Under the pieces are notes generated by a model that made no database searches, was not told the DNA's origin, and saw only the letters and a program-made list of their open reading frames with translations. Source: a virus (Duplodnaviria; Heunggongvirae; Uroviricota; Caudoviricetes). Taken from it: DNA of 23,325 nt. This document shows, piece after piece, positions 1 through 21,358 of the stretch (the first letter of the stretch is position 1; each line of letters opens with the position of its first letter). Position numbers and translations under genes: made by a program. Location of the stretch: IMG/VR virus record IMGVR_UViG_2511231170_000001; one strand, given 5' to 3'.

Positions 1-858
1 TCACTCACCTCTCATCTCGCTGGCAGTGCTCCCGGATTGGTGTCGGGCGATGATGTTGTTCAGCTTATCAATCAGCTCAGGTCGCTTGAATACGATTTGT
101 GCAGTTCCCTTCTGAAAATACTTAATCACAAACATCTCATCCTCATAGTGGTTGCTGTGCCGGTTTTCATGAATATGGTCTCCCAGCCGACGGGTAACGT
201 CAGCGCGGTTGTCGGGAACAGGCTTCCCGTCAAGGATCATCAGCATTCGCTCAAGGTCTGCTAACCGGTCACGCTGTCAGCCATGGTTAAGCCCGAATCC
301 CCACCGGTCGAATTTGACCAGTCCCGTCACAATGATTTTCGCTCCAAACCCGCAGGGCGAATTCGTCTTAAAATTCCAGCTTAATCCTTTGAAAACGTTA
401 ATGACGCCACGCTAAAACACCTCACCCTTGTTCAAATGCAGTTGCTTAAAGGTGCTCAGAATATTCGCTTCGCTGACCACCGGAATATCATCCTTTTCTA
501 GGCTGTTGTACCACTGGTTACGGGCCTGAGCGTCCATAATCGACAGCATCCCTGAGCGTTTCATTAAATCCCGCCATTTACCGCGATCGAGATTGCGGGT
601 AATGGCTTTCATCGCTGTTTCAGGCTTCTCCATAAGCCAGCAACCACAGCGAAAATCCTGTTTCATGACCCAGTCCAGGGCGGTTTTTCCGCCGATACTG
701 AGGGTTTGTGTCGAAATATCGTTAATCTGGTGGAGCAATGCTTCAATCTGTGTCAGCGCCGCATTACGTCCGGTGACGATGCGTTCAATACTGGTGGAGC
801 AAATCACATCGGTATGATCGGTTAATACTTCGGGGTTGGTGAGAGTAGGTTCTGACAT
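1..858 (-). pseudogene. Hypothetical gene disrupted by two in-frame stops (TAG at 412-414, TGA at 277-279); ORFs 412..858 and 1..246 are in the same frame
   Basis: Hand translation of 247-411 on the minus strand shows the 148-aa and 81-aa ORFs share a frame and are separated only by two stop codons; the intervening 44 codons read protein-like. Confidence 0.4.
412..858 (-). CDS. Hypothetical protein, 148-aa N-terminal segment of the disrupted gene
   Basis: ATG at 856-858 preceded by AGGAAAT Shine-Dalgarno on the minus strand; no family recognised. Confidence 0.5.
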   Translation of the reverse strand: MSEPTLTNPEVLTDHTDVICSTSIERIVTGRNAALTQIEALLHQINDISTQTLSIGGKTALDWVMKQDFRCGCWLMEKPETAMKAITRNLDRGKWRDLMKRSGMLSIMDAQARNQWYNSLEKDDIPVVSEANILSTFKQLHLNKGEVF

Positions 859-4393: not shown

Positions 4394-4441
4394 TATATTC
4401 ATCGCTGTGATTTTATAAATTAGTGTTTTTTGCTGTTTCAT
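3503..4441 (-). pseudogene. IS110-family transposase, C-terminal about 300 aa; the ATG at 4441 and first ~16 codons lie on the island side of the junction
   Basis: ...IKCQVIAPSRIPKSPTDRIKNDHRDAISLARLLRAGEL matches the IS110-family consensus; the N-terminal 77 aa of the same protein are at 15237-15485. Confidence 0.8.
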
Positions 4442-4537
4442 AATGTGCCACGTTGTTCATTATGTTTTTGATTTTTAAGCTCATTGCAATTTTTCTTGTT
4501 CCAACTTGTTCCACGTTGTACCCCCTTGTGCAATGAT

Positions 4538-4563
4538 CGGTGTAGTTAATGGTGTAGTTAATT
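4538..4563 (+). repeat. Left terminal 26-bp direct repeat CGGTGTAGTTAATGGTGTAGTTAATT (two tandem GGTGTAGTTAAT units); candidate integrase arm-type site or att core
   Basis: Perfect 26/26 match to 15154-15179; preceded by 10-bp-phased CTTGTTCCA repeats at 4495-4513. Confidence 0.85.
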
Positions 4564-4584
4564 GTGATGACCGGATTCAAAATT

Positions 4585-5814
4585 ATGAGCAGAGCACTTA
4601 ACAAACTGAGCGATACACAGCTAAGAAAAATCAACGGCACACCAGCCCCAAAAACCACATTTCTTAATGACGGTGGAAACCTGAGCGTCAGGCATTCCAC
4701 CAGCGGCTTATTAACCTGGTATTTCACCTACAGAGCAGGAGCTGGACGCCAGGTATCACCGGAACGCCTGAAGCTGGGAAATTATCCTGATCTGAGCCTG
4801 AAAGCAGCCAGGGAAAAAGCGGCACAGTGTCGCGCATGGCTGGCAGAAGGAAAAAATCCACGCCATGAGCTTAATTACTCCATACAGGAAGCACTAAAGC
4901 CGGTAACGGTGGGTGATGCGATCAGCTACTGGCTGGAAATGCACGTAAAGGAAAACCGTGTCGATTACGTATGCCTGAAAAGCCGCCTGAATAATCACGT
5001 CATACAGCATATTGGCAATATGCCACTGGATAAATGCGAGTTACGTCACTGGCTGGCCTGTTTTGACCGGATACGCAAAAAATCCCCTGTAACGTCTGGT
5101 CACATGATGCAGGCGTGTAAACAGGCGCTTAAGTTCTGCCGTAAACGTCGCTACGCAGTCAGTAACGTTCTGGATGATCTTAACGTGGTGGACGTTGGCA
5201 AAAAACCAGGCATAAGCGAACGCGTGCTGAGCAACAAAGAACTTGGCGAATTATTACAGGCGCTGGATAAAAAAATATTCCCGCCCTACTACAGCGCACT
5301 AATCCGCCTCCTGATTGTGTTCGGCTGCCGAACCGGAGAACTGAGATTATCGGAGATCAGGGAGTGGGATTTTAAGGAAATGCTCTGGACAGTACCGAAA
5401 GAGCACAGCAAAACGAAGGTCGCCATATTCAGGCCAATACCGGAAAGCATTTTACCGTTCGTCACGCAGCTGGTGGAGCAGAACAGACACACAGGGCTAT
5501 TACTCGGGGAACTGAAACAGGAAGCCAGTGTGTCGCAATACGGCAGATTCATGCACAAAAAATTAAACCATCCGCACTGGTCACTACACGATATACGGCG
5601 CACGTTTACCACGATGCTGAACGATTTAGGCGTGGATCCGCATATTGTCGAACAACTCACCGCTCACCAGATGCCAGGGATGCAGCGAGTCTATAACCAC
5701 TCCCGTTATCTCGATGCGAAACGTAATGCGCTGGACATGTGGACAGAGCGGTTAGAGATACTGGCGGGTACTCACAAAAACGTAACCACACTGCCAATAG
5801 CCAGAGAAATATAA
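4585..5814 (+). CDS. int: Tyrosine site-specific integrase (P4-type, N-terminal arm-binding domain)
   Basis: N-terminus LSDTQLRK...DGGNLSV...WYFTYR and C-terminal HDIRRTF...Y catalytic region; start uncertain (GTG 4564, ATG 4567 or ATG 4585). Confidence 0.9.
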   Translation: MSRALNKLSDTQLRKINGTPAPKTTFLNDGGNLSVRHSTSGLLTWYFTYRAGAGRQVSPERLKLGNYPDLSLKAAREKAAQCRAWLAEGKNPRHELNYSIQEALKPVTVGDAISYWLEMHVKENRVDYVCLKSRLNNHVIQHIGNMPLDKCELRHWLACFDRIRKKSPVTSGHMMQACKQALKFCRKRRYAVSNVLDDLNVVDVGKKPGISERVLSNKELGELLQALDKKIFPPYYSALIRLLIVFGCRTGELRLSEIREWDFKEMLWTVPKEHSKTKVAIFRPIPESILPFVTQLVEQNRHTGLLLGELKQEASVSQYGRFMHKKLNHPHWSLHDIRRTFTTMLNDLGVDPHIVEQLTAHQMPGMQRVYNHSRYLDAKRNALDMWTERLEILAGTHKNVTTLPIAREI

Positions 5815-6181
5815 TTTTTTTTGCGATTTTTTAGAACTGACACAACGTGAAACAACGAGACACCACGACGAACAACGGCGAACAATCTGGAACAAACTTG
5901 ATTAACATCTGACTGACACCCTAAAAAGTTGATTTTCAGTCGTTTTACTGGCTTTTTGTACATTGGCGAATCACTCTTAAAAACATGTAAAAAAGGCGTA
6001 AAAACAGAATTTTATGCCTTTGCACCACAATGAATTAAAAGAGTTTTTATTCTCATTACCACACTTCTGTAAAATGACCGCCGCCAGTGTTTGCCATTCC
6101 ATAAACACCCTGACACAATCCGACGCACCACAACACAATAGGACACCAAATAACTCTTTAAGAAATATCAAAGGGGGAATT

Positions 6182-6370
6182 GTGTTAAGCACAGATCGCT
6201 TTATACGTGAAAAAGAATGTCAGCAACTTACAGGCCTGAGCCGTTCATGTCGGTACCGCCTGGAAAAAACCGGACAATTCCCATCACGGCGTAAGCTCGG
6301 CGGTCGTTCCGTTGGCTGGTCTTTATCCGAAGTTCTGGCATGGAAGGAAAGCTGCGAGGCAGTTCACTAA
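6182..6370 (+). CDS. alpA: AlpA-family transcriptional regulator / excisionase-like protein
   Basis: GTG start after AAGGGGGAA Shine-Dalgarno; ...GLSRSCRYRLEKTGQFPSRRKLGGRSVGWSLSEVLAWKE resembles AlpA. Confidence 0.8.
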   Translation: MLSTDRFIREKECQQLTGLSRSCRYRLEKTGQFPSRRKLGGRSVGWSLSEVLAWKESCEAVH

Positions 6371-6898
6371 TCAGGCTGGCGGCACACAGCCGCCACCCAT
6401 CCACTAATACAGAGATCTAACCATGAATACTGGATATTCTCCCGAACAAGGGCGGGGCTTCGTTCGTCCTGAAAAACAGAATCTGCAAAATTTTGCCGAA
6501 ATTATTCCGGTTATTTCCGGCCTTACTGGCGGGAGTGAAACCAATATTGTTAACGCCAGAGCGTTGCAGATGTTTGATGATAAAAAGGGAGTAAATTTAA
6601 CTTACACCCCTGACGGCAATCAGAATATGAGCATTATCTCTGAGTCAGGTTTCTACAAACTAATAAAAACAAAAAGCGCCCCGTTGCCGGAGCGCCTTTG
6701 TGAACAATTAACCTACTGCGCAAAAAATGAATCTGAGCAGTGGGATTATATCAACCGTGTGGCGAAGCGCCACAATTGCCGGATAACAGGCAAAACAAAG
6801 GCCACCCGCTACGGTGGCCCCTCGACACAAGCTACACGTTATCCCCAACGCATGAGCATCACCAACAATGCCACATTTGCGGCTGGTGGGCAATGTGA

Positions 6899-7087
6899 TC
6901 AGTCAGATTTGGTTCGTTCCAAGGTTTGCAACGAGAGCTTTTTCCTGTGCTCTTTAAGGAATTTCTCAAGAGCAAAAGCACATGGCGCGAATCTTTCTGA
7001 TTCATGCTCTATCTTTCTGCGCCGTCTTTTCCGTGCCGGTGATAATGTTTTGGTCAATTCTTTATCGGTCATTGTGTTGTCCTGCAT
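6899..7087 (-). CDS. Small basic hypothetical protein, second gene of the leftward operon
   Basis: 62-aa ORF downstream of the RHH-like gene; hairpin plus T-run terminator on the minus strand near 6790-6820. Confidence 0.3.
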   Translation of the reverse strand: MQDNTMTDKELTKTLSPARKRRRRKIEHESERFAPCAFALEKFLKEHRKKLSLQTLERTKSD

Positions 7088-7129
7088 AGCAATGCGCCGT
7101 AATACCTTACACCACGGCGCTGATGGTGA

Positions 7130-7435
7130 TTACTCTGGTTCTTTGGTCTTGCGACGCTGGAGTTCTTCGCGTGCAACGGTGACAAGCTGCCCGATTTCTT
7201 CCGCTGCTTTGATGCCGATTTGTTCGACCTTAGCCAGGGCATCCAGTGACGACACAAGGGGATTTTCTCCGCTGCCTTCTGCTTGGCGGCGGGCTATTTC
7301 TCCGCGCATGGCGGTTACGATAAATCCGGCATTGCTTTCGCCGTCCAGCTTAACGGATTCCATCCCTTGCATAACATCTAGTGGGACTCTGACAGTTGTC
7401 AGTTGTGATTTTGCGTTTTTGTTAGCCGTTGCCAT
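7130..7435 (-). CDS. Putative ribbon-helix-helix DNA-binding protein; candidate island repressor
   Basis: AGGAG Shine-Dalgarno 7 nt before ATG; N-terminal beta-strand then two helices (TTVRVPLDVMQGMESVKLDGESNAGFIVTAMRGEIARR); divergent from the rightward operon. Confidence 0.55.
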   Translation of the reverse strand: MATANKNAKSQLTTVRVPLDVMQGMESVKLDGESNAGFIVTAMRGEIARRQAEGSGENPLVSSLDALAKVEQIGIKAAEEIGQLVTVAREELQRRKTKEPE

Positions 7436-7496
7436 TTCTGAAACTCCTAATCATCGGTGTGTTTCAGTATACACAAAAAAAGAAATACAAAAAGCC

Positions 7497-7534
7497 TTGA
7501 CGTGTGTTTCATGCGCTCATAACATGAAACACAC
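7497..7534 (+). promoter_or_regulatory. Rightward promoter (-35 TTGACG 7497-7502, 17-bp spacer, -10 TAACAT 7520-7525) overlapped by a perfect 12-bp inverted repeat GTGTGTTTCATG-N9-CATGAAACACAC
   Basis: Read directly; a further half-site GTGTGTTTCA at 7457-7466. Confidence 0.5.
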
Positions 7535-7632
7535 CAAAAGAATTGTTGAAATACAAAGAGCAACGCCCCGCAGTGCCGGAAACACATACGGGGCGTCTAA
7601 CCACCAACGATAGCAAGATTATCGAGGCTGCT

Positions 7633-7839
7633 ATGAGAAATCATACCATACACCCGCAAGGGCGGGACTCGCACAACCTGAATAAATACATCTGGCGTTT
7701 TATCGCCCTGAGTACGGCACAACCGCGCGTGATTACCATTGAGGCCACCAGCGAACAGGAAGCCCGTCAGCAATCACCGGCTGGCTGCGTGATGGTATTC
7801 GCCGCCCGTATTCGTCAGGGGGTGCACCATGTGCAATAA
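7633..7839 (+). CDS. Small protein resembling Icd-like (host cell division inhibitor-like) proteins of P4-like islands
   Basis: GAGG Shine-Dalgarno; motif WRFIA...IEATSEQEARQ...FAARI recalled from Icd-like annotations; uncertain. Confidence 0.45.
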   Translation: MRNHTIHPQGRDSHNLNKYIWRFIALSTAQPRVITIEATSEQEARQQSPAGCVMVFAARIRQGVHHVQ

Positions 7840-8065
7840 CACCCGTCCGGACGCAGCCGCCGAAGCAATCAAAACACTGATTGATGCGCTGATTGATATT
7901 TCTGTTATCGCGGACAGGGCGCATAAGCACGCTACCAGTGAAACAGAATATGCCGGGGCTTTCGTTCCTCATTCACTGGCTGTAATGCAACTTAGTGCTG
8001 ATATGGCACTGAATGAGGCCAGCAAAATTATCATGGCTGATATGGAGGTGGTGAGCCATGAATAA
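7829..8065 (+). CDS. Hypothetical protein
   Basis: 78-aa ORF, start overlaps the preceding gene's end. Confidence 0.4.
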   Translation: MCNNTRPDAAAEAIKTLIDALIDISVIADRAHKHATSETEYAGAFVPHSLAVMQLSADMALNEASKIIMADMEVVSHE

Positions 8066-8270
8066 TAATGAAGCGCACTTATCTGTAGTGCTGAATGTGC
8101 CGTCAGATTATACGGGGCGCGTACTGGTGTATCTGGAAAAAGGCCGGGTTAAATGCCAGTGCCGTTTAATGGAAAACGAATTTATCAGCACTCTTGCGGG
8201 ATTTTCTGAAATGCTCACTAAATCGGGTGTTAGTGCAGACCAGTTACGCGGGGGCGATTATGCGAAATAA
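8058..8270 (+). CDS. Hypothetical protein
   Basis: 70-aa ORF overlapping its neighbours by a few nucleotides. Confidence 0.4.
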   Translation: MNNNEAHLSVVLNVPSDYTGRVLVYLEKGRVKCQCRLMENEFISTLAGFSEMLTKSGVSADQLRGGDYAK

Positions 8271-8478
8271 ACATGATATTGAAGACCTGGCATTTGAAGC
8301 CCTGCACTCTGCGAAAAAAATCAGGGAAGTCGTCAATATGTGGATGAACAGCCTTAGCACCGATGAATCCGATAGCAGAGAGGAAATTCTTATTTCTTTG
8401 TTGTTAGACCTGGCAAATACACAGGTTTCTCTGACATCTGATATTGAACTCGCCGCTAAAAATCTGCCTCTGGAGTAA
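8260..8478 (+). CDS. Hypothetical protein
   Basis: ATG at 8260 overlaps the upstream stop (ATGCGAAATAA); acidic 72-aa product. Confidence 0.4.
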   Translation: MRNKHDIEDLAFEALHSAKKIREVVNMWMNSLSTDESDSREEILISLLLDLANTQVSLTSDIELAAKNLPLE

Positions 8479-8484
8479 AAAAAC

Positions 8485-8784
8485 ATGAAACAGAAAAATT
8501 CTGGCTTTACTGCCAGTGGTCTCCCTCGGCCTGAAATCCGCCCCGGCGATATTTTCCGGGATAACTACGGTGGCACGGTAACGATTAAAAGCGTGGCGGG
8601 GCGGTGCGTTACTTACCGCCGTGATGGGTACGGCTATGACTGCGTGATGCCTGCTTATCAGTTCCGGCGTGATTTTTCACTGATACAGGCCACACCACGC
8701 AAACAGCCCACCAGCAACGCAAAGGCACGGGCAAATATTCAGAAAATGAAAAACATGATTAACGCATTCAGGGGCAAAAAATGA
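8485..8784 (+). CDS. Hypothetical protein
   Basis: 99-aa ORF directly upstream of, and overlapping by 4 nt, the replication gene. Confidence 0.45.
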   Translation: MKQKNSGFTASGLPRPEIRPGDIFRDNYGGTVTIKSVAGRCVTYRRDGYGYDCVMPAYQFRRDFSLIQATPRKQPTSNAKARANIQKMKNMINAFRGKK

Positions 8785-15778: not shown

Positions 15779-16892
15779 TAAATAGCTGCGCGGAATAGTA
15801 GATCACTTTGAGGGAACTCAGCCCGGATTGTGCGATCTGATCAATCGCCAAATCAAAACAAATCACCAACCGGACTGAGCAATGCCGATCATAGCACCAA
15901 TTTCCCGTGACGAACGACGCCTGATGCAGAAAGCCATCCATAAAACACACGATAAAAATTATGCCCGCAGACTGACTGCCATGCTGATGCTGCACCGGGG
16001 CGACCGTGTCAGCGACGTTGCCAGAACGCTCTGCTGCGCCCGTTCCTCTGTTGGACGCTGGATTAACTGGTTCACGCAGTCGGGTGTTGAGGGACTGAAA
16101 TCATTACCTGCCGGGCGTGCCCGTCGCTGGCCGTTTGAGCATATCTGCACACTGTTACGTGAGCTGGTAAAACATTCTCCCGGCGACTTTGGCTACCAGC
16201 GTTCACGCTGGAGTACAGAACTGCTGGCAATAAAAATCAATGAGATAACCGGTTGCCAGTTAAATGCCGGAACCGTTCGCCGCTGGTTGCCGTCTGCGGG
16301 GATTGTGTGGCGAAGGGCTGCGCCAACTCTGCGTATCCGTGACCCGCATAAAGATGAAAAGATGGCAGCAATCCATAAAGCACTGGACGAATGCTGCGCA
16401 GAGCATCCGGTCTTTTATGAAGATGAAGTGGATATCCATCTTAATCCCAAAATCGGTGCGGACTGGCAACTGCGCGGACAGCAAAAACGGGTGGTCACGC
16501 CGGGACAGGTAAAGCCAGCTATGTGGGCGGCAACAGCAAAAGTTCGGCGCTGTTCATCAGCCTGCTGAAACGGCTTAAAGCGACATACCGTCGGGCGAAA
16601 ACCATCACGCTGATCGTGGACAACTACATTATCCACAAAAGCCGGGAAACACAGAGCTGGCTGAAGGAGAACCCGAAGTTCAGGGTCATTTATCAGCCGG
16701 TTTACTCGCCATGGGTGAATCATGTTGAACGGCTATGGCAGGCACTTCACGACACAATAACGCGTAATCATCAGTGCCGCTCAATGTGGCAACTGTTGAA
16801 AAAAGTTCGCCATTTTATGGAAACCGTTAGCCCATTCCCCGGAGGCAAACATGGGCTGGCAAAAGTGTAGCGGTATTAAGCGCAGCTATTTA
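15779..16892 (+). mobile_element. IS630-family insertion sequence with a disrupted transposase
   Basis: Terminal inverted repeats CTAAATAGCTGCGC (15778-15791) and its complement (16880-16893); IS66 sits 5 bp from its left end. Confidence 0.75.
15882..16870 (+). pseudogene. IS630-family transposase, two frames (15882..16568 and 16523..16870) joined across a short internal deletion near 16500
   Basis: N-terminal helix-turn-helix region and C-terminal catalytic region are both IS630-like; the frame changes between ...VVTPGQ and GKASYVGGNSKSS. Confidence 0.8.
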
Positions 16893-17162
16893 GGCAATCA
16901 GAATTTCCAGCGCCGTTTCCGTGATTAATGATGTCATGTCGTTCCTAGTTACCAGTCGAAAGTGGGCAGGCCCGGCAGACATCCTGCACTGGCAGCCAGA
17001 TGAATGAGACCGACGCCATAACACCGGATGAGAGTGACAACCAGACGACGGAACGTTTTTGACAGGCCAAGACGTTTAAGCCGCAGAACCGGATACGACC
17101 ACGCATCAGTACGTAACAGATAACCGGTACCTGTAAAATGAATCCATTCTGATTCGCCGAAG

Positions 17163-17441
17163 TCATTCGTCTGATGTGACAGTGAGTACAGCCAGGCGTT
17201 GTCCTTTTCCGTGATATGTGCGGTACTGCAACGAACGTATGTCGGTAAGGGCAGTAAACGGTGGTGGAGAGTCGGTTGTCTGCTGTTCGGGAGCATCCAC
17301 CACGCGGAGTGAATAACCGTTTTCAGCGACCTTATTATTCAACTCAGCGGGGTCAATACCATCGACGTCAACGACAATTCGCCCCATGTTCAGTGCCTGC
17401 ACGTTAACGCTGTCTGCTTCGAGCGTCAGAGTCAGTTTCAT
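17163..17441 (-). CDS. YeeW-like small protein, translationally coupled downstream of the toxin
   Basis: ATG 17441-17439 overlaps the toxin stop (ATGA); same position as yeeW in CP4-type islands. Confidence 0.55.
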
Positions 17442-17815
17442 CGTTTCGCCTCCGAATGTTCACCCCGGATGATGTCGTTCACCATTCTGTAGTTGCTGCG
17501 GGTCATCAGGCCGGTTGCCCGGCGGGCCCGGAGGATATCAATACTGTTTATTAACTGAGAACGGGTACAAGCGCTGAATCCTGGCTGGTCGGTACGTACC
17601 AGTGCGTATTTTTCAACGAGAAAGTTCACCGCATCGCACAGTGAAATGCCTGCCTCAATATGCTGCTCAATCACACGTTCATCAGCGAACGGTGTGTCAT
17701 TCAGTGTGAGGCCGTAATGCTGGTCCAACAGTTGGGTGAGCAGTGTCTGCCAGATGGTGACGGGAGACGGGCAGCGCGATGCCTCCCGTACGTGTGTGTC
17801 AGGTAATGTTTTCAT
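17438..17815 (-). CDS. CbtA/YkfI/YpjF-family toxin (type IV toxin-antitoxin, cytoskeleton-targeting)
   Basis: [76 protein letters not shown]... closely resembles CbtA-family toxins; start is the internal ATG at 17815. Confidence 0.85.
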
Positions 17816-17861: not shown

Positions 17862-18236
17862 TTATGAGGTGGTTGCGGGTGCCAGTGTCGGATAAACAGC
17901 CATATAAACGTAACCACAGCTGCCGAGGGTGTCGGCTTCGCAGGTCAGCCCTCTGGCATACAGCGTGACGGTATGCTGATGGCGGGGATTCAGTTCACCG
18001 ATGGTGAGCATGAGTTCCAGTTGTTTCATCAGCAGTGGAAAAGCCTGGTCCAGATGGTATGCATCCGCGTCGCTGAACTGCCCTCTGATACCGGCGCGGT
18101 CGGCAAGGTAATGCAACTGATTGCCCTCCTGCACCAGACGTGCCCCGAAACAGGGCGTCACGGTGCAGGGTAGCCCCCACCAGGGGCGGTCGTTGTTGTC
18201 GTCGGGATAATTTGTTTCATGGAGCGTGTCTGACAC
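17862..18236 (-). CDS. CbeA/YeeU/YfjZ-family antitoxin
   Basis: ...[64 protein letters not shown]...; GTG start at 18236 (VSDTL) inferred by alignment. Confidence 0.85.
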
Positions 18237-18285: not shown

Positions 18286-18930
18286 TCAGCCGGTGCACAG
18301 ACCGGCTTCGGTGAAGGTGTATTCGTTGATGAGCAGGGCCTCATCCACAGCGGCGTCTGAGGTCAGCCAGTCGTACTCGTTTTCCAGTTGACGGTACAAC
18401 CAGAAGGCCAGGTCGCGCAGGGCTTCGCTGACAGCGGCTTCCGCATCGGCTGTCAGTGCCTGACCAGTCGGACTGTTCCGGGTGACGGTGATATCCATGC
18501 TGTACGGATGGCAGTAACGTCCCCGGTGACTGATTTCAGCCTGTAACTGCCAGAAGTTACGCTTCTGTACCGCCTGCAGGGCATCCGCGATACGATGAAG
18601 CTCACGGTCCTGAGGGGCATATTCCCTGATTTTCCGGGGTGTCGCTGGCTGCCAGTGCCAGCGCCCTTCAAAACAGGCTCCGTCCCCCTGGCTGCAGAAT
18701 CCGCTGAACCAGATGCACGGCTCTTCCATAAACCTGCCGTTGCTGAGCCGGAAAACGCGCTGGCGGAGGTCAATTCCGAAAATGCCACAGACCTCCCTGA
18801 AGTCCTCATACACGTTTTCATACCAGTTGCTGTCAGCATGATGCTGACGGTACCAGTCGCGGGCTTTTTCCTGTGCGGTGGAGGATAGCTCATGCAGTGT
18901 ATACACGGTGGTGGTGATAATTCTGCTCAT
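18286..18930 (-). CDS. Hypothetical protein (214 aa) between the DUF987 gene and the antitoxin
   Basis: Gene-like ORF tightly packed in the operon; no family recognised. Confidence 0.55.
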   Translation of the reverse strand: MSRIITTTVYTLHELSSTAQEKARDWYRQHHADSNWYENVYEDFREVCGIFGIDLRQRVFRLSNGRFMEEPCIWFSGFCSQGDGACFEGRWHWQPATPRKIREYAPQDRELHRIADALQAVQKRNFWQLQAEISHRGRYCHPYSMDITVTRNSPTGQALTADAEAAVSEALRDLAFWLYRQLENEYDWLTSDAAVDEALLINEYTFTEAGLCTG

Positions 18931-18948
18931 CAGAATGCCCTTACTGAC

Positions 18949-19170
18949 TCAGTTCAGAGTGACGCTCATCAGCCGGACATACGGGCCAAAACTGTCCTTA
19001 CGGCGTTCAGCAAACACGGCCAGCACACCGGGAATATCCTGCACTTCACGACCGGTATACGTTTCAGTGCTGCCGTGCCAGCGGTATTTGCCGGTACAGA
19101 ACGGAAAAAGACGGGATGCAGGATGCTGTTGGTGAATACGCATGGCTTCACCACGGGTGATGATTTTCAT
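18949..19170 (-). CDS. DUF987 / YeeT-YkfF family protein
   Basis: MKIITRGEAMRIHQQHP.SRLFPFCTGKYRWHGS...YTGREVQDIPGVLAVFAERRKDSFGPYVRLMSVTLN is near-identical to recalled YeeT. Confidence 0.85.
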   Translation of the reverse strand: MKIITRGEAMRIHQQHPASRLFPFCTGKYRWHGSTETYTGREVQDIPGVLAVFAERRKDSFGPYVRLMSVTLN

Positions 19171-19232: not shown

Positions 19233-19709
19233 TTAAAGCAGACCATGTTCGGCAAAGGAGAAAACCTGGCTGCCACCGACTATCAGATGGTCCGGCACCC
19301 GGATATCCACCAGGCCCAGTGCCTGTACCAGACGTTCCGTGATAAGCCGGTCTGCCTTGCTGGGTGTGACTTCACCGGACGGGTGATTATGTGCCAGCAC
19401 CACGGCTGCGGCATTGTGATACAGGGCGCGTTTAATCACTTCCCGGGGATGGACTTCCGTGCGGTTGATGGTGCCGGTGAAGAGGGTTTCACCGGCAATC
19501 AGCTGATTCTGGTTATTCAGATACAGCACCCGGAACTCTTCACGCTCCAGTCCCGCCATGTTCAGAATCAGCCATTCCCGTGCCGCACGGGTGGAGGTGA
19601 AGGCCACGCCGGGTTCATGAAGATGGCGGTCCAGGGTTTTCAGGGCCCGCAGAATGAGACTGCGCTCGCCGGGCGTCATTTCTCCGGGCAGAAAGGAAAT
19701 CTGTTGCAT
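19233..19709 (-). CDS. RadC-like JAB-domain protein (YeeS/YkfG/YfjY family)
   Basis: JAMM motif ...VVLAHNHPSGEVTPSKADRLIT... Confidence 0.85.
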   Translation of the reverse strand: MQQISFLPGEMTPGERSLILRALKTLDRHLHEPGVAFTSTRAAREWLILNMAGLEREEFRVLYLNNQNQLIAGETLFTGTINRTEVHPREVIKRALYHNAAAVVLAHNHPSGEVTPSKADRLITERLVQALGLVDIRVPDHLIVGGSQVFSFAEHGLL

Positions 19710-19724: not shown

Positions 19725-20198
19725 TCAGTCAATAATGCGCATAATGGCGCTGCATTCCGGATGCTGCAGGGCGTAATCCCGCAGACGGTAATAATGAACC
19801 GTCATGGCATAACACTCCGTACGGCAGGCGTGATGACTGTACGTCATCAGACAGGCGGCAATGCCGGCGGCTTCCGGGCTCATTTCAGCGCGGTTACCGT
19901 TCATGACGTTAAACAGCACCCATGTTTCGTCATCATCGTCATCCGGTTCGGGTGCCATAAATGCGCCACCGTTGTTCAGGGTGTACAGATTCCAGATACC
20001 ACCGCAGTAGTCTTCATACAGACGGTCCATCCAGCCGAAGACCCGGGGCTCCAGGGTCACCCACTGTGGAATGAGGCCAAAATGCTGCGGCCAGAAGCTG
20101 ATGCGCTGTTCATCAGGGACTATGGTGGCAACCAGTTGTTGCAGGCCAGTCTCCGGTGCACAGGCCGAAGAGGTGGTGTTCTGAGACAATGTTTTCAT
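19725..20198 (-). CDS. Antirestriction protein, KlcA/ArdB-like (YfjX/YafX family)
   Basis: Start at ATG 20198 after AAGGA; MKTLSQNTTSSACAPE... and an acidic DDDDDE patch. Confidence 0.8.
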   Translation of the reverse strand: MKTLSQNTTSSACAPETGLQQLVATIVPDEQRISFWPQHFGLIPQWVTLEPRVFGWMDRLYEDYCGGIWNLYTLNNGGAFMAPEPDDDDDETWVLFNVMNGNRAEMSPEAAGIAACLMTYSHHACRTECYAMTVHYYRLRDYALQHPECSAIMRIID

Positions 20199-20291: not shown

Positions 20292-20537
20292 TCAGGGATG
20301 AATGATATTCGGCTGAAATTCCGGACAGCCGTACGCGTAACCGTTCCGGTCACAGACGGATGGCCAGATGCCATTGCCTGTACTCAGTCTGCACAGACTG
20401 ATTTCTCCGGGACGGTAAAGCAGACGGGTACACCAGGCGCACAGGTCATCATCAGAAATGGAACGACACCCCGGCAGCGCCTCCGGGGCGTCGGGTGATT
20501 CTGGTGCCTGAATCACGCCTTCAGGGACATGCTGCAT
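20292..20537 (-). CDS. Hypothetical small Cys-rich protein, translationally coupled to the DUF932 gene
   Basis: ATG at 20537 overlaps the DUF932 stop (ATGA). Confidence 0.4.
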   Translation of the reverse strand: MQHVPEGVIQAPESPDAPEALPGCRSISDDDLCAWCTRLLYRPGEISLCRLSTGNGIWPSVCDRNGYAYGCPEFQPNIIHP

Positions 20538-21358
20538 CAGCGCTGGCTCTCCAGCAGCGTTTCTGCCATTACCCACAATGCGCGGTTGAGCTTAATATCG
20601 GTGTCGATGCTGTGAATGGCACGGGTGTGGATACGTTTTCCTTTTGCACTGCGACCGGAAATCCCGCCTTTCAGCATATTCTCCTGGATGGTCTGATAAG
20701 TACTCCACAGGTCCTTACCGTAATCCTCCCGGCGTCGTGGCGTCAGAATGTCGGCGGTGGTGACGGGCCGATGTTCGTCACCATAACGGTAAGTCAGTGC
20801 CGCCTGTGCCAGCGCCTGGCGTGCCGGTGGCGGCAGAATCAGCGACTGCATGGCATCACGCATCTCCTCTATCCGGTCAAACACGCCCACCACCTCGTAA
20901 GCCCCTTCAATGACTCTGTCCACCACATTTCCCCGGTGCGGAACACGCACTTCCCCCAGAGACTGACCACAGACGCATCCGTTCTGGCAGACGAACCTGA
21001 AGTAACCCGGCAGCATCTGGTAGCTGGAGGTACCGTCATGAGAGTTGAGCAGAATAATTTCAGGGACATGTTCTCCGTTTATCTCTCCGTTACGGCGCAG
21101 GCGCAGCATGTGTTTTGTGTATCCCCGGCGGCCCGGGTCGCGCACACAGGTCTGGCAGGCGAAGAATGGCTGAAAGCCTTCCCGCTGCAGGCTTTCCAGT
21201 ACGGTGATGGTGGGGATGTACGTATAGTTCTGGCTTCGGGACGTGTGTTTCTCTTCCCCGAAAATCCCCGGCACATGGTGCATCAGCTCTTCATGTGTCA
21301 GTGGACGGTCACGGCGTATCTGGTTCGCAGCATAACCAAAACAACTGGCTAATCGCAT
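20537..21358 (-). CDS. DUF932-domain protein (YfjQ-like)
   Basis: 273 aa; MRLAS.FG...IRR.RPLT..ELM..VP..F...KH.SRS..YTYIPTI...L...GFQPFFACQ pattern recalled from YfjQ. Confidence 0.8.
   Translation of the reverse strand: MRLASCFGYAANQIRRDRPLTHEELMHHVPGIFGEEKHTSRSQNYTYIPTITVLESLQREGFQPFFACQTCVRDPGRRGYTKHMLRLRRNGEINGEHVPEIILLNSHDGTSSYQMLPGYFRFVCQNGCVCGQSLGEVRVPHRGNVVDRVIEGAYEVVGVFDRIEEMRDAMQSLILPPPARQALAQAALTYRYGDEHRPVTTADILTPRRREDYGKDLWSTYQTIQENMLKGGISGRSAKGKRIHTRAIHSIDTDIKLNRALWVMAETLLESQR

Follow-up and report, generated by a model that had tools for sequence, protein, structure and literature searches.

We analyzed a 23,325-nucleotide stretch of DNA catalogued as a Caudoviricetes virus (IMG/VR record IMGVR_UViG_2511231170_000001; the whole stretch is referred to as the window). 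The window is 99.6–100% identical to the tRNA-Asp-adjoining island of Escherichia coli ATCC 25922, save one 10.8-kb insertion, and contains on its minus strand a co-oriented block of genes with a 214-amino-acid (aa) reading frame near its downstream end. The features of this block are given in the order in which they would be read:

20537..21358, minus strand: DUF932 gene (YafZ/YfjQ family), upstream end of the co-oriented block (Pfam PF06067, E 5.8e-51)
19725..20198, minus strand: KlcA/ArdB-type antirestriction gene (Antirestrict; Pfam PF03230, E 7.5e-37; start as in PGAP)
19233..19709, minus strand: RadC-like JAB domain gene (Pfam PF04002, E 1.4e-44)
18949..19170, minus strand: DUF987 gene (YeeT/YkfH/YpjJ family), directly upstream of the 214-aa gene (Pfam PF06174, E 3.7e-39)
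18931..18948, minus strand: 18-nt spacer from the DUF987 stop to the ATG of the 214-aa gene, with AAGGG (from the sequence)
18286..18930, minus strand: 214-aa gene, ATG-initiated open reading frame (PHROG 5162, E 1.4e-36)
17862..18236, minus strand: CbeA/YeeU-family type IV antitoxin gene with a GTG start at 18236 (Pfam PF06154, E 1.2e-53; PGAP coordinates in ATCC 25922)
17438..17815, minus strand: CbtA-family toxin gene (Pfam PF06755, E 3e-62; PGAP)

The genes thus run in one orientation from DUF932 through a small open reading frame (ORF), the KlcA-like antirestriction gene, RadC, DUF987, the 214-aa gene, CbeA and CbtA to a DUF5983 gene cut by an IS630 element. The 214-aa gene starts 18 nt past the DUF987 stop (18949), and 49 nt separate its end from the GTG of CbeA (18236); these distances bear out the tight packing between DUF987 and antitoxin noted in a first-pass annotation of this DNA. 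An AAGGG ribosome-binding site lies 9 nt 5' of its ATG, and we found no convincing promoter or terminator between the gene and its neighbors. It seems to share a transcript with DUF987 and cbeA/cbtA, in an apparent operon that extends from DUF932 to CbtA. The protein contains 3.7% Trp, 3.3% His and 2.8% Cys and has a net charge of −9 and a pI of 5.3; its earlier description as Cys/His/Trp-rich holds loosely, and that of an acidic C-terminus applies to the C-terminal third. The exact protein of the window is present at NCBI (AER82864.1 and AER87783.1), and PGAP names the gene of ATCC 25922 'hypothetical protein' (WP_000086761.1). The small ORF between the DUF932 and antirestriction genes (20292-20576; PGAP equivalent 20292-20537) encodes 82–94 aa, overlaps the DUF932 stop, is Cys-rich (CAWC...C...C...C) and has no Pfam match.

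Several other parts of the window are disrupted or foreign to the ATCC 25922 island. The DUF5983 (YeeW-like) gene after cbtA is frameshifted in the ATCC 25922 annotation, and just downstream of it lies a frameshifted IS630-family transposase (the two features span 15882-16870 and 16949-17441). A DUF4942 gene near the start of the window (412-858) is broken as well. The 10.8-kb segment missing from the ATCC 25922 island (4411-15255) is inserted inside an IS110-like ISEc45 transposase gene, with flanks that overlap by 4 bp. Besides small ORFs, it encodes:

4564-5814: tyrosine integrase
8781-10196: AAA_25 primase/helicase-like protein
11690-12745: Phage_cap_E major capsid protein

The segment looks like a capsid-encoding phage satellite.

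The 214-aa ORF is a real gene under purifying selection, since its sequence is conserved, its substitution pattern is constrained, and its product is modeled with confidence. The N-terminus (MSRIITTTVY) is kept in alphaproteobacterial homologues, and conservation extends over the whole length at ∼60% identity. Among enterobacterial alleles dN/dS is 0.12–0.24, including alleles that are just 64% identical; pairs with a fusion allele of the gene to cbeA (214::CbeA, locus L008, see below) were left out as invalid, because they place an indel in an ungapped comparison. An AlphaFold2 model calculated from a 132-sequence alignment has a pLDDT of 95.7 and a pTM of 0.88. Two shadow ORFs that overlap the gene (18453-18893 on the minus strand and 18595-18888 on the plus strand) are without such conservation, dN/dS or model support.

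A presence/absence survey, which the first-pass annotation had proposed, was carried out by megablast against 5,426 complete E. coli genomes and returned the gene in more than half of them:

214-aa gene: 4,274 places in 2,826 genomes
214-aa gene, copies with a query coverage of 80% or more: 1,941 genomes
DUF987 gene: 12,892 places in 4,798 genomes
cbeA gene: 13,149 places in 4,823 genomes
CP4-44-type deletion scar, identical in each case (see below): 2,806 places in 2,530 genomes
in-frame 214::CbeA allele: 29 places in 29 genomes

Comparing its places with those of DUF987 and cbeA, roughly one third of the E. coli CbeA/CbtA modules contain the 214-aa gene and about two thirds do not. In the modules of E. 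coli K-12, DUF987 is directly followed by the antitoxin and the 214-aa gene is absent, as the first-pass annotation stated for CP4-type modules; this order holds for K-12 but not for E. coli in general. The yeeT-cbeA spacer of CP4-44 in K-12 MG1655 is 73 nt long and unannotated (L011 2540-2612). It retains the 18-nt spacer with the ribosome-binding site, followed by the start codon and the opening eight codons (MSRIIATT) of the 214-aa gene, and these run directly into the sequence downstream of its stop codon; a spacer alignment defines the scar as a clean loss of ∼640 nt of the gene. The spacers of CP4-6 and CP4-57 measure 18 and 37 nt and show no trace of it. The start of the gene fused to its 3' flank in CP4-44 shows that this K-12 module is a deletion derivative and that the K-12 arrangement is a derived state.

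The 214-aa gene is a standard component of the module, ancestral at least in the CP4-44 lineage, and it is dispensable, since its loss is repeated and widespread, as seen in the deletion scar. Its occurrence at thousands of places and the clean scar in K-12 CP4-44 speak against an inserted accessory or cargo gene, as had been proposed. The gene arrangement of the window is of an already known kind, because it is common and, at least in the CP4-44 lineage, ancestral. The gene could alternatively be a functionless remnant in E. coli that drifts toward loss: the island is decayed, with IS630, IS66 and IS110 insertions and frameshifted DUF5983 and DUF4942 genes, the clean deletion has occurred in a lineage that now accounts for 2,530 genomes, and many truncated copies of the gene exist. 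We consider this improbable in view of the low dN/dS, which also holds for the alleles of 64% identity, of full-length copies in at least 1,941 genomes, and of a reading frame that is intact together with all family motifs.

We next describe the protein family. The 214-aa protein has no match in Pfam (E ≤ 0.01) or NCBIfam, and none of the PADLOC-DB 2.0 defence models match it at E ≤ 1. The single profile match is PHROG 5162, a family of unknown function, and it is full-length (residues 2-210 of 214 versus profile positions 2-195 of 201). The gene is thus an ordinary member of this catalogued but uncharacterized family, and the earlier statement that it is uncharacterized stands; it is a standard member of its module without being a characterized one. 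The structure prediction called for by the first-pass annotation gave the confident model described above, which has no relative among solved structures, and a search of PDB sequences, run both with the protein alone and with the family profile, returned nothing. A Pfam scan of 132 family members produced scattered noise matches and no consistent family. Literature searches by label, by accession, and with DUF987/CbtA and DUF932/RadC retrieved no study of the protein.

The family is very large. A word-seeded search located 2,938 clusters at 90% identity, and an exhaustive profile search located 6,366 clusters at 50% identity with E ≤ 1e-3, 1,102 of them with E ≤ 1e-30; thousands of identical or near-identical entries exist in databases. 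Nearly all members are single-domain proteins of ∼200–220 aa, and the rare longer ones (P0143, P0252 and others) have no recognizable extra domain. One NCBI copy (P0001, 283 aa, from a single contig) contains an internal tandem duplication of the first ∼70 residues, which could be real or an assembly artefact. The family is acidic (median pI 4.75, median net charge −16), and the product of the 214-aa gene is predicted to be a single-domain, acidic α/β protein of ∼210 aa.

When we scored conservation over 132 members that share ∼40% identity, a Gly-rich β-hairpin (G77-x3-Q81-G-D-G-A-x-F87-x-G89) was conserved at 90% or more, and its motif S-Q-G-D-G-A-x-F-x-G is nearly invariant in the family. 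The same level is reached by Glu-14, Asp-108, His-141, Trp-177, Tyr-179, Asn-202, Phe-206, and Gly-210, and His-112 is conserved at 81%. The window protein contains the hairpin, Glu-14, Asp-108, His-141, Trp-177, Asn-202, Phe-206 and Gly-210, and carries all family motifs (SQGDGA-F-G, D-x2-L-H-x-I, H-x-G-x-Y-x-H, and N-E-Y-x-F-T-E-x-G). Cysteines are not conserved, except Cys-86 at 65%, and therefore do not point to a metal cluster.

The closest non-enterobacterial relatives, with 60–64% identity, are encoded on alphaproteobacterial conjugative plasmids and integrative and conjugative elements (ICEs). Their neighbors are ArdC, DUF2958, ParB-like, DUF736, Toprim, relaxase, and coupling protein genes. 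Across 79 alphaproteobacterial loci, the gene directly downstream encodes a 1,440–1,470-aa methyltransferase/Strawberry-notch (Sno) helicase in 43 cases, DUF4326 in 9 and other proteins in the rest, and not a toxin. The order in Pleomorphomonas is ArdC, DUF2958, the family gene, methylase-Sno helicase, and Toprim, and a Rhodobacterales plasmid has ParB, SSB, DUF932, two RadC genes, DUF6878, the family gene, and an Xre/RES toxin-antitoxin pair. In Tistrella, the gene is located 1.9 kb upstream of a nikA-like/relaxase operon, co-oriented with it and next to ParB_N and DUF736 genes; this gene order would fit a leading-region gene in position and orientation. The relaxase of other plasmids is located more than 14 kb from the gene. 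A long co-oriented block of this kind, with antirestriction/ArdC, DUF932, and Sno helicase genes nearby, is present on conjugative MOBQ and MOBP plasmids. In total, 112 plasmids match the family, 41 of which are typed as conjugative, and on conjugative plasmids and ICEs the gene is found beside anti-restriction, SSB or methylase genes.

A conserved ORF of ∼136 aa (MADYYTHFSCLLDVG...GGDPYA) runs 8 nt into the start of the family gene in 66 of the 79 alphaproteobacterial loci. It is found in the ∼410 nt upstream of the family gene (for example L013 5598-6008 and L003 7592-8008) and has no Pfam match. We considered whether it could be a hidden CbeA or DUF987 and rejected this on hhalign probabilities below 1%. 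The ORF is probably a functional partner of the family gene.

The family is also present in phages. We located 92 matching phage records, 23 of which have two copies; the carriers are Caulobacter, Brevundimonas, Acinetobacter and Pseudomonas phages, enterobacterial jumbo phages, and Bacillus Herelleviridae. The gene is annotated within the terminal repeats of Caulobacter Bertelyvirus and of Klebsiella phage fENko-Kae01, and is 3.4 kb from the genome end in Bacillus phage Hobo. In such phages, genes for early host takeover are located in the terminal repeats. Among large phages, the family is thus seen in terminal repeats and in putative early regions. Two phage annotations of family members are unsupported: the label 'RNA polymerase binding protein' in Acinetobacter phage CP14 (L094 3992-4591), where nearby tiny ORFs have implausible replication-protein names, and the label 'YeeU-like antitoxin' in Klebsiella phage K64-1 (gp417, L103 3501-4112), which sits on the family member itself.

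These locations bear on the suggestion of the first-pass annotation that the gene is defence-related. A cargo gene that protects the host from phages would not be out of place, as islands at tRNA genes often have defence genes, AbiE and other systems are found near related modules in Klebsiella, and the 214-aa gene is uncharacterized. We give this reading very little chance, because the protein is a small, single one without a recognizable effector domain or a PADLOC match, the gene has a fixed position in a conserved operon rather than in a variable cargo slot, and the family also occurs in the terminal repeats of lytic jumbo phages and in transfer-associated plasmid blocks. Its homes in the anti-restriction blocks of plasmids and ICEs and in phage terminal repeats argue for a function that serves the incoming element, not the host, and the label 'defence-related' is unsupported.

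In Enterobacterales, the gene is linked to the CbeA/CbtA module. It abuts CbeA in every enterobacterial locus that we read, in three gene orders: DUF987-[214]-CbeA-CbtA in the window and in a second E. coli allele of 64% identity, DUF987-CbeA-[214]-CbtA in Klebsiella, and DUF987-CbeA-CbeA-[214]-CbtA in Salmonella, there with a 4-nt overlap. A natural E. coli read-through allele (L008/L009 4001-5032), in which the TGA stop is changed to TTA and 34 bp are deleted, encodes a 343-aa 214::CbeA protein. The 29 complete genomes with this allele (0.5%) come from chicken, cattle, boar, human, and water isolates. The allele retains the cbeA Shine-Dalgarno sequence and GTG, so that CbeA can still be made separately. 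An AlphaFold2 model of the fusion, calculated to look for docking between the two halves, has a pTM of 0.60 and a pLDDT below 50 in the CbeA half, because the alignment is shallow there, and is thus uninformative about an interface.

The main rival explanation starts from this linkage, and holds that the protein belongs to the CbtA/CbeA type IV toxin-antitoxin module of Enterobacterales as its third component, acting with CbeA, for example as a regulator, adaptor or sensor. The constant neighborhood of CbeA in three gene orders and the in-frame fusion in genomes of varied origin would be explained by such a role, and the Rhodobacterales plasmid has a different toxin-antitoxin pair (Xre/RES) right after the gene. 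However, most of the family is encoded without CbeA/CbtA nearby (the 79 alphaproteobacterial loci, the plasmids and the phages), and about two thirds of the E. coli modules lack the 214-aa gene. K-12 CbeA/CbtA-type pairs work without it, according to two published reports (PMC5371832 and PMC5624674). The fusion is rare and leaves CbeA separately makeable, and the family is not homologous to CbeA (hhalign probability 0.2%; no PF06154 domain in the 214-aa protein at Pfam E ≤ 0.01). We regard a role as third component as unlikely, while still a serious contender.

It is far less credible that the 214-aa protein is itself the antitoxin. A RelB-type antitoxin label stands in NCBI and UniRef records, and toxin-antitoxin genes adjoin the gene in Enterobacterales and in one plasmid. 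Yet the label is a generic RelB description, many copies are now named 'hypothetical protein' by PGAP, and in none of 132 members did we detect a domain of the RelB/PHD, CbeA or any other antitoxin type. An antitoxin is already encoded in the module, most family members (79 alphaproteobacterial loci) have no adjoining toxin gene, and a compact α/β fold of 214 aa is unlike the known small antitoxins.

Taken together, the 214-aa gene fits best as a conserved backbone gene of mobile DNA, not as island cargo, because the DUF932, RadC, antirestriction, ParB-like, SSB, and methylase genes recur with it on conjugative plasmids, and a reduced set of them is found in E. coli. The E. coli CP4-type island would thus keep a remnant of the establishment block of a conjugative element. 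Leading regions of conjugative plasmids are enriched in anti-defence genes, methyltransferases, SSBs, toxin-antitoxin genes, and many uncharacterized families (PMC11541004). From its context, we infer for the 214-aa protein, with a confidence just short of an even chance, an early-expressed factor that aids newly entered DNA and whose action on a conserved partner would depend on the invariant hairpin and on Asp/His residues. In this mechanism, the protein would be made early from DNA that has just entered the cell, and would act on a well conserved component of the host or of the element itself. Its action would proceed through the Gly-rich hairpin (S-Q-G-D-G-A-x-F-x-G) together with Glu-14, Asp-108, His-112, His-141, and Asn-202. 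The presumed result would be establishment of the element, by counter-defence or by host takeover.

Several observations speak against an establishment factor of this kind. Copies from Alpha- and Gammaproteobacteria share 60% identity, an unusually high value for a typical, fast-evolving anti-defence inhibitor; conservation above that of such inhibitors suggests that the target is conserved, or that the protein acts in catalysis or ligand binding. The linkage with CbeA/CbtA in Enterobacterales is left unexplained by a general role in establishment. The locus stretches that we examined in E. coli islands contain no conjugation genes; any function in establishment would be a vestige there, although the 214-aa gene is under purifying selection. 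The repeated loss of the gene, seen in the deletion scar, shows that it is dispensable. The 214-aa protein has no detectable homology to any protein of established activity.

In its widest form, the establishment reading would turn the family into a novel class of proteins for early establishment or counter-defence, whose fold is unseen in solved structures and which is common to conjugative elements of Alpha- and Gammaproteobacteria and to jumbo, SPO1-like and phiCbK-like phages. Its members would engage a conserved cellular target via the Gly-rich hairpin and a putative Asp/His pocket, and would have been recruited beside CbeA, and at times fused to it, in Enterobacterales. We put this broad proposal forward tentatively, as one that is somewhat unlikely to hold in all its parts.

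Our analysis corrects the K-12-centred picture of CP4-type CbeA/CbtA modules, in that the fuller module includes the 214-aa gene. It also draws attention to a large family, with thousands of clusters, that has neither a Pfam model nor a solved fold. The family is a reasonable candidate for anti-defence or host-takeover screens, because it sits in plasmid and phage regions that appear to be the first to enter a cell.

Compared with known systems, the 214-aa protein has the ∼210-aa length and the motifs of the PHROG 5162 family, from which we found no difference. To the CbeA/YeeU antitoxin (PF06154) it is tied by its position in the operon and at times by an in-frame fusion, but it is unrelated in sequence, twice the size of CbeA, and mostly found without CbeA outside Enterobacterales. 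With regard to the leading-region genes (ArdA, ArdB/KlcA, ArdC, PsiB and SSB; Samuel et al. 2024, PMC11541004), we found no sequence or fold similarity to any of their products or to the further known anti-restriction protein Ocr, and the 214-aa family is far more conserved than typical inhibitors. The likeness to leading-region genes is one of context: like them, the members of the family are small and acidic, lie in the same genomic surroundings, co-oriented with antirestriction, SSB and methylase genes, and occur in both phages and plasmids.
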